NCBI GenBank assembly: GCA_963802205.1
Contig: CAWDHW010000017.1
Location: forward strand, 803 to 64,802
DNA: 64,000 bases
Direction of reading: 5' to 3'
Source of the DNA: an uncultured Gammaproteobacteria bacterium
GTDB taxonomy: Bacteria > Pseudomonadota > Gammaproteobacteria > Chromatiales > Chromatiaceae
Position 1 is the stretch's first letter. Each line of letters opens with the position of its first letter. Under the pieces are notes generated by a model that was not told the DNA's origin, did no database searches, and worked only from the letters and a program-made list of their open reading frames with translations. The translations under genes and the position numbers were made by a program. Positions 4,112-9,160 of this stretch are shown here, one piece after another.

Positions 4112-5170
4112 TCACCCAACCCAGATCTTTTCCCCGTACCCGGTCATCTCCAGATAGCCCCGCCCAACCTGAGGGCCGTCCTCTGCGACCCGCACCGCGC
4201 CCTCCCAGTAGACGGCCCCGGTGGAGCGGCGGCTGTCCAGTTCCTGGTCGTCCATCAGGGGTTGGAGCTGGAGCAGCCGGGTGCCGATGCGGACCCGCCA
4301 CGCCACCGGGTAGGCGATGCCGGTGCGCGGCGAGGTCCAGTAGCGCAGCGGCTCGAAGGCCACGGCCTCCGATGGCAACACCTGTGCACTGCCCCCGCTG
4401 GGCGGAAAGTGGCCGCGGACCAGAAGGGCTGGCCGTCCTGGCCGCGCAGTCGGAAGGCCATCAGGGCGTTGCCGTCGGCGAGATTCAGGCCGACCCAGTC
4501 CCAGCCTTGGGCCCCTTCGGGCAGGAGCTCGCTGGACCATTCGTGGTCCAACTAGGCCAGCCCCGTCACGGCCTGGGGACGGCCGTCCAGGGTCACGCGG
4601 CCGCTGACCTTGAGCTGCGGGCGGCTATAGTAATAGCTCGCGTGGCGCGGGTCCGGGGCCTTGGCGCTGAACCCGGCGAGGCCGTTGAGCAGGGGCGGGC
4701 CGTCGGGGACCAGGGACAGGGCATAAGCGAACCCCTCGCCACGGACCTCCGCCCGATAGCGGTCGTCGGTCTGTTCCAGGCGCCAGTCGCCGATCCACAG
4801 GTGCGTCTGCCCGGTCTCGAAGCCGGCGCGGCCGAACCCGACCCGGGCGGAGCGCTGGTCGTGACGCAGGCGGCCGAGGCGCGGGTCGGCGATGGCCGCA
4901 TGGGCGAGCAGCAACTGGCGCGGTGCGAAGGCGCTGGGGTTGGTCTCCCCGGTGCCCGTGTGCACGCGGAAGAAGGTCGCCGAGGCACTCGGCCGCGGGA
5001 AAGCCACCACCGATGCCCGTGCGCACGCGCAAGAAGGTGGTCTGGAAGCCCAACGGGCTGCCGTCGGGCAAGGTCAGCCAACCTGTGGCGTACCACCACT
5101 CGGTGCGGAAATTGGGGTGTGCGCCGTGATCGGCGGGAAAGGACAGGGCCAGGCCCGGGAGCACCGACGC
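4112..5170 (-). pseudogene. AttH/lipocalin-like (carotenoid 1,2-hydratase-family) protein, multiply disrupted
   Basis: Pieces lie in three frames: [22 protein letters not shown] (ORF 4625..5233), FFRVHTGTGETNPSAFAPRQLLLAHAAIADP... (ORF 4552..5010) and DHEWSSELLPEGAQGWDWVGLNL (ORF 4255..4551). The end piece ...PLRYWTSPRTGIAYPVAWRV...YWEGAV is in ORF 4112..4540. There is an in-frame TAG at 4552-4554 where W is expected. The 5' end is lost at the IS remnant. Confidence 0.75.
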
Positions 5171-5440
5171 CAAGATGACCACGGCCCTGCTCGACCGCCT
5201 CACCCACCACTGCCACATCGTGGAGACCGGCAACGATTCCTACCGCTTCCGCCACAGCAGCGCGACAGCCAAATCCAGGATCAAAGCCAGGGAGCAAACT
5301 AAACGAGGTGGGGCGAACGACGCACCCTTCTGACCGTAGTACCGTTACACTTGTCCACAGCCGCTCCCTGCGCGGAGCAGCCTCTTTCCCTGGTCAATAT
5401 TCAACCGGTACACCTGGTCGGAATTCGACCGGTATCAACA
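5163..5440 (+). mobile_element. IS21-family remnant (last ~52 codons of istB plus terminal repeat region)
   Basis: 5175..5333 encodes [46 protein letters not shown]...-TGA, a typical IstB C-terminus. Downstream direct subrepeats tcaaccggtacac and tcgaccggtatcaac (5401-5440) resemble multi-repeat IS21 ends. No istA and no istB body are present. Confidence 0.6.
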
Positions 5441-5567
5441 GCCCCCTTACGCCGCCCGTACAGGGTCCACCTCAATACCCTCATCCGGCGGGTCCGGCGA
5501 GGCTGCCAGCCCGTATCTTCCCTCGTCCCGAGCCGCGGCGCGCCTGGCCTGCTATCCTGGGCGCCCC

Positions 5568-6215
5568 ATGAACAAGACCAAGCGCACCGCCATCTTCGAG
5601 CGTCTGCGCGCCGCTAACCCGGCGCCTACCACCGAACTCGCCTATGGGAGTCCCTTCGAGCTATTGATCGCGGTCATTCTGTCCGCCCAGGCCACCGATA
5701 AGGGGGTGAACAAGGCTACGGCACTCCTCTTTCCCCTCGCCAACACCCCCGAGGCGATCCTCCAACTCGGTGAGGAGGGCCTGAAGGAGCAGATCCGCAC
5801 CCTGGGCCTCTTCAACAGCAAGGCCCTGAACATCCTGGCGACCTGTCGGATCCTGGTGGAGCGCCATGGCGGCGAGGTCCCGCGCACCCGGGCGGACCTG
5901 GAGGCACTGCCGGGTGTGGGGCGCAAGACCGCCAATGTGGTGCTCAATACCGCCTTCGGCGAGCCGACCATGGCCGTGGACACCCACATCTTCCGCGTTG
6001 CCAACCGCACCCGCATGGCTCCGGGCAAGACCCCATTGGCGGTGGAGCTGGGCCTGATCAAGTGGGTCCCCAAGTCCTTTCAGCGCGACGCCCACCACTG
6101 GCTGATCCTCCACGGGCGCTATGTCTGTACGGCACGCAAGCCCGCCTGCCCGGACTGCCTGATCCGGGATCTGTGCGAGTACCCGGACAAGACCAGCACT
6201 CCCGGTACCGTCTGA
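5568..6215 (+). CDS. nth: Endonuclease III
   Basis: 215 aa with the HhH-GPD motif (LPGVGRKTANVVL), catalytic region DTHIFRV and a C-terminal 4Fe-4S cluster motif CTARKPACPDCLIRDLC. Confidence 0.95.
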   Translation: MNKTKRTAIFERLRAANPAPTTELAYGSPFELLIAVILSAQATDKGVNKATALLFPLANTPEAILQLGEEGLKEQIRTLGLFNSKALNILATCRILVERHGGEVPRTRADLEALPGVGRKTANVVLNTAFGEPTMAVDTHIFRVANRTRMAPGKTPLAVELGLIKWVPKSFQRDAHHWLILHGRYVCTARKPACPDCLIRDLCEYPDKTSTPGTV

Positions 6216-6238: not shown

Positions 6239-6670
6239 ATGTTCAGCCAAGACCGCGACAGACTAAGACGCTACCTCGCCGCCGCCTGGGCCAAGGCTAG
6301 CGCCGGCGCGCCCCTGGAGCCCCTGGAGCACCAGATCGCCGACCTGGTGCGCGGGCACCCGGAGTACCAGTCCCTGCTGGGGGACCCGGAGGGCGCCATC
6401 GGGCGTGACTTTGCCCCGGAAGCGGGTCAGACCAACCCCTTCCTGCACCTGGGCCTGCACCTGGCCCTGTTGGAGCAGGTGGCTACCGACCGCCCGGCAG
6501 GTATTCGCGACCTCTATCAGACCCTGGTAGGACGCAGCGGCGGTGCCCATGCGGCCGAACATCTGGCCATGGAGTGTCTCGCACAGGCCCTATGGGAGGC
6601 CCAGCGCGGGCAGCGACCGCCGGACGAGGGCGCCTATCTGGAGTGTCTCACGCGCCTGACCCGGGGTTGA
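6239..6670 (+). CDS. DUF1841-family protein
   Basis: Start taken at ATG 6239 inside ORF 6062..6670. MFSQDRDRLRRYLAAAW...HPEYQSLL...NPFLHLGLHLALLEQVATDRPAGI...ECLAQALWEAQR matches the DUF1841 pattern as I recall it. Confidence 0.7.
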   Translation: MFSQDRDRLRRYLAAAWAKASAGAPLEPLEHQIADLVRGHPEYQSLLGDPEGAIGRDFAPEAGQTNPFLHLGLHLALLEQVATDRPAGIRDLYQTLVGRSGGAHAAEHLAMECLAQALWEAQRGQRPPDEGAYLECLTRLTRG

Positions 6671-6882
6671 ATCCGGCCCGAATCTACCCCCAACCGACCG
6701 CCCGTGGATCCCGATCTTCGGTGGTACCAATCCCGGCAGCCCGGAAAAAGGACTTGCGCAGCTCGTGAGATGTGCTATCTATTGCGTACCCCAGCACAAA
6801 AGTCGGGAATTATTCCGACCCGGCGGCGGGGATCGACCCACCTTGTTCGTGCCTCGACCTGACACCATTCCGGAGATCAGAG

Positions 6883-7243
6883 ATGACCAAGAAGACCAGC
6901 CTCAAGCCCGCCGTGGCCGCCGTCGGTTTCGCCCTGGTGGGCAGCCTGGCCGTCGCCAACCTGGCCAATGCCGCCGACAACCCCTTCGGCTCCAGCTCGA
7001 TGAAGAGCGGCTACATGCAACTCGCCCAAGCCACGCAAGAGGGGATGGGTGGCATGTCCGGTGACAAGGCCAAGCAAAGCGGCATGTCGGCACGGCATGT
7101 CCGGCGACAAGGCCAAGAAGGAGGGCAAGTGCGGCGAAGGCAAGTGCGGCGGTGACAAGGCCAAGAAGGAAGGCAAGTGCGGTGAGGGCAAGTGTGGCGG
7201 CGCGAAGAAACCCGCCGAGGGCAAGTGCGGCGGGGCCAAGTAG
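6883..7243 (+). pseudogene. HvfA/bufferin-like RiPP precursor: signal peptide plus 5 x EGKCG core, frameshifted as sequenced
   Basis: GGAG Shine-Dalgarno at 6872-6875. Frame 1 reads [70 protein letters not shown]. Frame 2 reads [52 protein letters not shown]. Length is 1 mod 3, and the switch falls within ggcatgtcggcacggcatgtcc (about 7075-7096). Confidence 0.75.
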
Positions 7244-7265: not shown

Positions 7266-8120
7266 GTGAGCGATCGGCAGTTTCCCGTTCACGGCGCCGG
7301 TCTCGGGCTGCGGCGCTCCTTCCTGGAGGCCGCGGTCCAATCCCCGCCGAGCGGGGTTGAGTTCTGGGAGATAGCCCCGGAGAACTGGATCGGGGTGGGC
7401 GGACGTTACGGGCGCCAGTTGCGCGCCCTGACCGAACGCTACCCCTTCGTCTGTCACGGTCTGTCGCTCTCGATCGGCGCGCCGGCACCCCTGGACGAGG
7501 AATTCGTCCTCCGCATCAAGGGGTTTCTGGATACAAACGGCATCCGCGCCTACTCGGAGCACCTGAGCTACTGCTCCGACGACGGCCATCTCTACGACCT
7601 GCTCCCCATCCCCTTCACCGAAGAGGCCGTCCACCACGTCGCCAGCCGGGTGCGGCGGGTGCAGGACCTTCTGGAAAGACGGATCGCGCTGGAGAACGTC
7701 TCCTACTACGCGGCGCCCGGTCAGGAAATGCCGGAGATCGACTTCATCAACGCCGTGCTTGAGGAGGCCGACTGCGACCTCCTGCTCGATATCAACAACA
7801 TCTATGTGAATGCCATCAACCACCGTTATGACCCGGTGGATTTCCTGGCCCGACTTCCCGCGAGGCGCATCCTCTATGCCCACATCGCCGGGCACTACGA
7901 GGAGGCGCCGGACCTGCGTGTGGACACCCACGGGGCGGATGTGATCGACCCCGTCTGGACCCTGTTGGTCGAGGCCTATGCCCGCTTCGGGGTCTTTCCG
8001 ACCCTGCTGGAGCGCGACTTCAACATCCCCCCGCTGGAGGTCCTGACGGAGGAGGTCGGGACCATCGCCCGGCTCCAGGCCGAGGCCAACCGCGTGTCGC
8101 TGCGCCTGGCCCATGGTTGA
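7266..8120 (+). CDS. DUF692/MNIO-family RiPP maturase (HvfB/MbnB/BufB-like)
   Basis: GTG 7266 within ORF 7152..8120. [10 protein letters not shown]...[10 protein letters not shown]...[11 protein letters not shown]...YSEHLSYC...ALENVSYY...[14 protein letters not shown]...HIAGH...DTHG are hallmark DUF692 TIM-barrel metal-ligand segments. Confidence 0.9.
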
Positions 8121-8910
8121 GCCGCCCTCTCTCGCCGGGGGCTCCTTCACCGAGATCCAGTTCGGTTTCGCGGCCCACATTCGTGATCCCGCGGTGCAGC
8201 CAGCCCCCACGGACGTGGAGGACAGGCGCATGGCGATCTACCGCGAGTTGGTCTTCAACAACGTCGAGTCCCTGCTCGCCGGCAACTTCCCGGTGACCCG
8301 TGAGGTCCTCGGGGAGGAACACTGGGCGGGGCTGGTGCGGGGATTCTTCATCCACCACCGTTGCACCACCCCTCTCTTTCACGAACTGGGGCAGGAGTTT
8401 CTCGCTTACCTCCAGGGGCGCGGCGAGGGGAAGGGCGATCCGCCCTTTCTTCTGGAGTTGGCCCATTACGAGTGGGTCGAGCTGGCCCTGGACATTGCCG
8501 AAGACAGCCTTGATCTTGCCGAAATCGATCCCAACGGCGACCTGCTTGCGGGCATCCCCGTGGTCTCGCCGGTCGCCTGGTCGCTCGGCTACCGCTTCCC
8601 GGTCCACCGCATCGGGCCTGACTTCAAGCCCGAGCGACCGGACCCTGAGCCCACGCGCCTGGTGGTCTACCGCACCCGCCCGGGGGACGTGGAGTTCCTG
8701 GAGGTCAACGCCGTCACCGCACGCCTGCTGGAACTCCTGGACCAGAGCACCCTTGGCTCCGGCCGGGACGCCCTGACACGGATCGCCGCCGAGTTGCGCC
8801 ACCCGAGCCCGGATCAGGTCATTGCCGGAGGGGCAGAACTATTGGCGGACCTGCGTCGGCGCCAGATCCTGGTCGGGACCCGTCTTCGGTGTAGCCCGAT
8901 GTCCGATTAA
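8113..8910 (+). CDS. DUF2063-domain RiPP maturation partner (HvfC/BufC-like)
   Basis: Overlaps the MNIO stop by 8 nt. The N-terminal segment [10 protein letters not shown]...[40 protein letters not shown] is typical of the DUF2063 proteins that follow DUF692 genes. Confidence 0.85.
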
Positions 8911-8944: not shown

Positions 8945-9160
8945 ATGTTGCAGAGTTTGCTGGTTTCCGGTCAGTACCTGTCAGCCAACCGGACATTGTT
9001 AACCTTCCAGACCGAGGCCGGCCGGCTGGTGGTCCTGAACAACGGCATCGAGTTTGCCGCCACCTATTTTGTGATGCTCCTGGCCCTGTTCTTCCTTGGC
9101 GGGGGGCGTTATTTCAGCGCAGATTTCTGGATTGCCCGTCGCTGGCGGAGCCACGCCTGA
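8945..9160 (+). pseudogene. DoxX-family membrane protein, C-terminal fragment only
   Basis: The 71-aa ORF ends NNGIEFAATYFVMLLALFFLGGGRYFSADFWIARR, like the last TM helix of DoxX. Only ~250 nt separate the neighbouring genes, so the N-terminal two-thirds are missing. GC is locally lower at 8911-9010. Confidence 0.45.

Follow-up and report, generated by a model that had tools for sequence, protein, structure and literature searches.

Gene content of the hvf locus

The window analysed here, 64,000 nt of contig CAWDHW010000017.1 (assembly GCA_963802205.1, genome G000), harbours a Chromatiaceae hvfA-hvfB-hvfC cluster of ordinary composition, in which the precursor gene is accompanied by genes for an MNIO maturase and its partner. 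Gene identities at the locus are based on NCBIfam profile scans with the family cut-offs, and all features described below are on the forward (+) strand. Two neighbours are located upstream: nth, coding for endonuclease III (5568..6215; TIGR01083, 271 bits versus a cut-off of 211.7), and a DUF1841 gene (6239..6670; PF08897 is recorded for the conspecific gene), the latter with a dN/dS of 0.14 against L161, the longest conspecific contig (4.26 kb). Synteny on the nth side is identical in L161-L165 and in G001, a genome of the same genus. An IS21 (IstB) remnant and a block of broken genes begin where the homology to conspecifics ends, at 5441 (window 5163-5440 compared with L164:1-195 and L165:1-186); at the same place upstream of nth the conspecific contigs carry the 3' end of a tRNA gene and a T-rich stretch. 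This suggests that an insertion or rearrangement specific to the strain took place upstream of nth, at a site flanked by a tRNA gene.

The precursor gene hvfA starts at ATG 6883, and its 5' part is read in frame 1. The gene opens with a Sec-type signal peptide (6883..6972, MTKKTSLKPAVAAVGFALVGSLAVANLANA), which was assigned by eye from its K-rich n-region, hydrophobic core and ANA-A site and is near-identical in all close alleles. The adjoining NPF..GYMQLA segment (6973..7026, frame 1; full stretch ADNPFGSSSMKSGYMQLA) is kept in relatives across the family and, judging from PMC11252979, may serve in recognition by HvfC. It is followed by a Met-rich linker of strain-variable length (7027..7092, frame 1), for which the alignment of alleles contains in-frame variants of -30, +9 and +18 nt and others; by a frame-changing, extra partial repeat copy of 13 nt (7080..7093); and by the core with five EGKCG motifs, in frame 2 (7094..7243, with the stop codon TAG at 7241-7243). 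The core scores 61.5 bits and the intact conspecific protein P0003 51 bits on NF050137, the HvfA-family domain profile (cut-off 19.5). On NF050188, the H. influenzae HvfA equivalog, the core and the intact alleles reach 17.5-24.5 bits, below the cut-off of 95. By its NF050137 match, hvfA is assigned to the described HvfA/oxazolin (Buf_EGKCG) family. The linker (window 7027-7092; residues 13-77 of P0003) additionally gives a weak match to TIGR02953, 'pentapeptide MXKDX repeat protein' (17.7 bits, below the cut-off of 41).

Both partner genes are intact: hvfB, encoding the MNIO-type maturase (7266..8120; NF003818, 439.9 bits versus a cut-off of 360, covering profile positions 1-264 of 264; dN/dS 0.21), and hvfC, encoding the RRE-containing partner (DUF2063) (8113..8910; NF050145, 318 bits versus 142, positions 1-237 of 237; dN/dS 0.30). 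The nearest HvfB relatives come from Thiohalocapsa, Lamprobacter and Halochromatium, at 74-80% identity. Downstream, only the 3' third of hvfX (DoxX) is left (8945..9160; NF050144, 57.9 bits, below the cut-off of 80). The genome has a single hvfA locus.

The precursor is split between two reading frames

The split itself is present in the sequence: frame 1 carries the signal peptide, the NPF..GYM segment and the Met-rich linker, and past the junction it runs on as RHVRRQGQ.. as far as TGA 7153-7155, the longer ORF 6772..7155 being this same frame merely begun at an upstream GTG. Frame 2, from 7094, reads GMSGDKAKK and then the five EGKCG motifs up to TAG 7241-7243. Our translations thus agree with the preliminary description, which had placed the leader in frame 1 and all five motifs in frame 2. 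The 13-nt partial copy that it had located between two full repeat units was likewise recovered: two GGCATGTCCGGYGACAAGGCCAAG units flank a segment that can be written as GGCATGTCGGCAC (7081-7093) or, given a one-base ambiguity, as CGGCATGTCGGCA (7080-7092), and the junction interval is bordered by CAAAGC and GGCATGTCCGGCGAC. The extra copy has TCGG, versus TCCGG in the flanking units. The 13-mer occurs once genome-wide, no donor for it was found elsewhere in the genome, and no single clean event could be derived that turns any known allele into the 13-nt copy. The core has a periodicity of 48 nt (Tandem Repeats Finder).

Translation across the junction yields a continuous precursor of 119 aa, the length proposed earlier, which matches an intact protein of 115 aa from end to end at 96% identity (E = 2.8e-59). 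With a match of this extent, the split is not a chance pattern. Since frame 2 is free of stops from about 7004 onwards, the full product would result from a shift at any point within about 90 nt. As assembled, the frame-1 signal peptide and the frame-2 motifs are on separate polypeptides; in all conspecific alleles they are joined. It had also been stated that the core would be neither exported nor even translated. The export part stands, as the frame-2 product has no signal peptide, but the translation part goes too far, since GTG 7049, with AGGGG about 5 nt 5' of it, opens frame 2.

This start codon could mean that the frame-2 ORF (64 aa) is translated on its own, as a leaderless cytoplasmic EGKCG peptide that is still modified by HvfBC. 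The ORF scores 58 bits on NF050137, and HvfA truncations devoid of the signal and the entire N-terminal region were still HvfBC-modified in E. coli (PMC11252979). However, the start and the SD-like motif coincide with the QEGMGG codons of the normal frame and are also found in intact alleles, no relative encodes a leaderless form, and the frameshift would have to be real in the first place. We consider an independent leaderless product scarcely credible.

Alleles of conspecific strains

A search for relatives, in which the junction-spanning translation served as query, found intact full-length proteins of 102-124 aa, among them P0003 (115 aa, 96% identity to the query), P0004 (121 aa, 89%), P0008 (105 aa, 88%), P0006 (118 aa, 84%), P0005 (116 aa, 83%), P0007 (124 aa, 83%) and P0009 (119 aa, 78%). 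P0003 is encoded on 12 contigs, which are short-read contigs, from at least 10 samples, with 96.6-97.4% DNA identity to the window and with the same gene order as there (nth, DUF1841, hvfA, hvfB, hvfC); the contig coding for the intact 105-aa P0008 reaches 98.2%. One Logan contig of the P0003 cluster encodes a protein, P0122, in which the stop codon is replaced (..GGAKY..) and which reads on to 154 aa; this may be a variant or a contig error.

Compared with L161, the 13-nt segment at 7080-7092 is the sole coding indel in 4.3 kb: there is none in nth, DUF1841, hvfB, hvfC or the next gene. The DNA alignment of eight alleles shows that the junction CAAAG^CGGCATGTCC is length-variable in other lineages too. 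At or near it, L176 has an in-frame insertion of 9 nt and L174 one of 18 nt, one whole 30-nt unit is absent from L171 (the window's closest relative), and more in-frame insertions are found directly upstream. These in-frame insertions and deletions among lineages identify the linker as a true length-variable tract. More than 20 contigs together carry at least 11 different intact alleles, 102-124 aa long and in frame without exception; the window allele is the only out-of-frame one among those compared. The comparison with orthologous precursors that the preliminary description had recommended sets a split window allele against uniformly single-frame, intact alleles. The truncated product of the window is a singleton in the protein collection, a search of JGI metagenome contigs with the 22-nt junction returned only two matches, both at unrelated loci, and the collections searched held no second assembly of the same strain (exact HvfB and HvfC look-ups included).

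As a by-product, this survey reveals that the HvfA segment between the recognition region and the EGKCG core is hypervariable in length among near-identical strains, with the core itself invariant. The core DNA is identical among conspecific strains (window 7094-7243 versus L161, L163, L166 and L171), and amid flank divergence of 2-3% such identity could be due to strong constraint, or the repeats could evolve in concert.

The allele survey bears on whether the cell makes use of the split, either by on/off expression through changes of repeat length or by a +1 ribosomal shift in the linker. The lesion does sit in a tandem repeat of strain-variable length, and a shift anywhere in the roughly 90 nt over which frame 2 is open would serve, but every other allele is single-frame. 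For a phase-variable contingency locus the repeat units are of the wrong size: at 9 and 30 nt they are multiples of 3, by which the length changes and the frame does not, and no off allele was found elsewhere. Nor does the site resemble a programmed +1 frameshift of the prfB type, as it has no homopolymer, in-frame stop or known slippery motif, frame 1 is open to 7155 with no stop until 7153, and the shift is conserved in no orthologue. We regard such use of the split as highly improbable, and phase variation, +1 recoding and an independent leaderless product, even when taken jointly, as very unlikely. The same low credence is given to the bolder proposition that the 13-nt allele is real and the Met-rich linker a mutational switch; strains would then alternate between exporting a copper-binding peptide and making none, or else would retain a leaderless cytoplasmic EGKCG peptide, started at GTG 7049 and still open to modification by HvfBC.

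A real frame change could instead be a very recent mutation private to this strain, a complex 13-nt insertion that inactivated hvfA and left no exported HvfA beside intact hvfB and hvfC. Indels do cluster in the linker, the locus is the only one of its kind in the genome, the flanking genes are free of signs of poor consensus, and a real structural change is found 1.4 kb upstream, where the IS21 remnant takes the place of the conspecific tRNA gene end. On the other side, slippage by 9 or 30 nt would yield copies that are perfect and in frame, and the one seen here is neither; the allele is absent from every other assembly searched; and the downstream part is undecayed, with 0 differences in 150 nt of core against L161, versus 2-3% in the flanking genes. 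The unchanged core, together with the dN/dS values of 0.21 and 0.30 for hvfB and hvfC, implies that the frame change is either very recent or not real. On balance, and with the assembly data considered below, we think a private mutation unlikely; were it nevertheless to apply, the gene would be an ordinary, recently inactivated family member.

The hvfX remnant

The truncation of the DoxX gene, which the preliminary description had raised as a sign of recent inactivation of the locus, was confirmed as such (only positions 118-164 of the 165-position profile are matched). Its interpretation was not, because relatives with intact hvfA are truncated as well. The remnant is common to the window and to L161, where hvfA is intact, and its divergence of 7.2% exceeds that of the surroundings. 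In G001, about 25 codons of hvfX are left (C49:95303-95509), adjoining an intact hvfA of 117 aa, and full-length hvfX was found in none of the five genomes of the genus, all of which keep hvfABC. These comparisons show the truncation to be old and genus-wide. Occurring together with intact hvfA in conspecifics and across the genus, it says nothing on recent inactivation, and the argument from hvfX for a decaying locus, and with it for a private mutation, fails. DoxX/HvfX is considered non-biosynthetic (PMC11252979), and genus-wide conservation of hvfABC but not hvfX fits the published view that DoxX is dispensable for biosynthesis (PMC11252979).

Frame changes in conserved genes and Met-rich repeat arrays

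Genome G000 consists of 35 contigs of at least 31 kb each, contains no N and has a GC content of 66.4%; its contig statistics and error pattern suggest that it was assembled from long reads. Within the genus, counts of frame splits gave no clear contrast, with as many in G001 and G002 as in G000. The complete relative G008 was therefore taken as yardstick, and ORFs from 1.2 Mb of it served as queries. By this measure, 8 genes out of 269 conserved ones have their parts in different frames in G000, versus 4 of 399 in the reverse direction. Counts of in-frame stops were too noisy to serve as a sign of real decay, the rates from antisense and stop-to-stop ORFs being alike in the two directions.

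Among the split genes are tgt (C34:45102), queA (C34:22012-22030), gatA (C19:46178-46207), mpl (C9:15958) and nadA (C20:79703), with one single-base indel each. In gatA, the first 53 profile positions fall in another frame. No AsnRS was found above the cut-off in the genome, which makes GatCAB indispensable, so that the gatA frameshift must be an error. The splits in tgt and queA, two genes of one pathway, could instead represent a real loss of queuosine modification. Both being out of frame is what real loss would give, and the pair accordingly counts in favour of a private mutation in hvfA.

The repeat class to which the linker belongs was far more affected. The unit GGCATGTCCGG has 25 occurrences in the genome, and three secreted Met-rich (GMSGMGG)n genes, of 30-40 units each, share GGCATG-NNN units with the hvfA linker; their products are presumably Met-rich copper-binding proteins. 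Similar (GMSGMGG)n arrays are present in 19 of 61 related genomes. One frame switch was detected in the array at C5:33950-34800, three in that at C3:39800-40950 (L221) and three within that at C10:152100-153450. Every switch stems from the miscalling of one or two bases at a short G/C run, e.g., GGGCGGG to GGCGGG, GGGCGGG to GGGGG, or AGC to AGTC, and beyond it the repeats continue perfectly in the new frame, which is unlike real decay.

G000 thus has 7 switches in 2.6 kb of repeats (about 2.7 per kb), whereas its ordinary conserved coding sequence has about 1 per 40 kb. As controls, ten arrays from nine relatives of 60-540 contigs (623 units, 5.7 kb) contained 0. This imbalance weighs against the private mutation. 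A second few-contig genome of the genus, G002 (30 contigs), has 5 switches in one array, e.g., ATGTCGGATG for the expected ATGTCCGGCATG, an undercall in a C/G run of the same kind as the TCGG in the extra copy of the window. G002 also carries a second hvfA-like gene (L012:1320-1611, on C9), in which the start and the EGKCG core are in one frame and the NPFGLNELDSGYMQLA segment is in another, bracketed by two compensating shifts; the last motif of this paralogue reads EGECSG.

Origin of the frame change

We consider a long-read assembly artefact to be the best explanation of the frame change in hvfA, with a probability of roughly three in four. The strain would possess its own in-frame length variant of the hypervariable linker, in which the long-read consensus would have miscalled one or two bases of a short GC-rich tandem repeat and so produced a 13-nt copy, a length that is not a multiple of three. 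Such an unseen in-frame allele is likely, given that hardly any lineage lacks an allele of its own. Beyond that, one or two bases have to be miscalled within about 30 nt, and in this repeat class the assembly errs about once per 370 nt. The family assignment, the intact conspecific alleles, the in-frame polymorphism at the site and the many miscalls in the repeat class are all observed directly; the sequencing technology and the true allele of this strain are what we infer.

Four points are at odds with an artefact. The difference amounts to 13 nt and not 1 nt, so that an unseen in-frame allele has to be assumed in addition to a miscall. The neighbours nth, DUF1841, hvfB and hvfC are indel-free against L161, and local quality is not generally poor. 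Some of the frameshifted conserved genes (tgt, queA) could be real losses, in which case the genome would contain real pseudogenes. Finally, structurally decayed genes and the IS21 remnant occupy the first 5.4 kb of the window. The earlier account had left three explanations side by side. The consensus error has emerged as the best supported of them, slipped-strand inactivation is unlikely and has lost its DoxX argument, and phase-variable expression finds no support in the alleles.

The caution extends beyond this gene. In few-contig (long-read type) genomes of the group, spurious frame changes abound in the short GC-rich tandem repeats coding for Met/Gly/Ser-rich copper-binding segments. When a metallophore or Met-rich gene appears broken in an assembly of this type, support from reads is needed before it is classed as a pseudogene or as a phase-variable locus.

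Comparison with known systems

The gene family, the operon and variable repeat number are already in print. HvfABC and oxazolin were described from the hvfABCX operon of nontypeable Haemophilus influenzae (PMC11252979), the Buf_EGKCG/oxazolin family figures in the MNIO survey (PMC12452194), and fontiphorin (FonA/FonBC of Fontimonas thermophila) and gonophorin are EGKCG peptides with 5-thiooxazoles (PMC12668002). The modification has been reassigned from oxazolone/thioamide to 5-thiooxazole (PMC12668002; bioRxiv 10.64898/2026.06.05.730506), and conversion of Cys to 5-thiooxazole as well as Cu(I) binding are known for homologues (PMC11252979, PMC12668002, 10.64898/2026.06.05.730506). By analogy with these homologues, HvfC would bind the precursor, with the conserved NPF..GYM region as the probable contact, HvfB would oxidise the five EGKCG cysteines to 5-thiooxazoles, the product would be exported by Sec with cleavage of the signal peptide, and the mature peptide would sequester Cu(I). 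One speculation, prompted by the other Met-rich secreted repeat proteins of the genome, is that the thioethers of the variable, Met-rich GMSGDKAK linker could serve as additional copper ligands.

Like H. influenzae HvfA, the window precursor has a Sec signal, a C-terminal run of EGKCG motifs and adjacent genes for HvfB and HvfC that score above the NCBIfam equivalog cut-offs. It differs in having five instead of six motif cysteines, no N-terminal disulfide pair, a Met-rich GMSGDKAK linker and, as assembled, leader and core in different frames; moreover, unlike the H. influenzae operon, the whole genus of the window has lost hvfX. With fontiphorin and gonophorin it shares the EGKCG repeats, the MNIO and PME1-type partner and a presumed Cu-sequestering role, but repeat number and linker are different, and the window system is known from sequence alone. 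From the Buf_EGKCG family of the MNIO survey (PMC12452194) it differs in nothing of substance: the precursors there have a signal peptide and repeated EGKCG, the listed RiPP/MNIO/DUF2063/DoxX combinations cover clusters devoid of DoxX, and the window gene is a member.

The frame change, for its part, resembles the gene-fragmenting indels of long-read assemblies (PMC12007338; PMC8442456), which are frameshifts at short G/C runs and tandem repeats, in that it occurs in a few-contig assembly and is absent from short-read relatives. Unlike typical indels of this kind, it differs by a net 13 nt from the known alleles, so that a real length variant must underlie the miscall.
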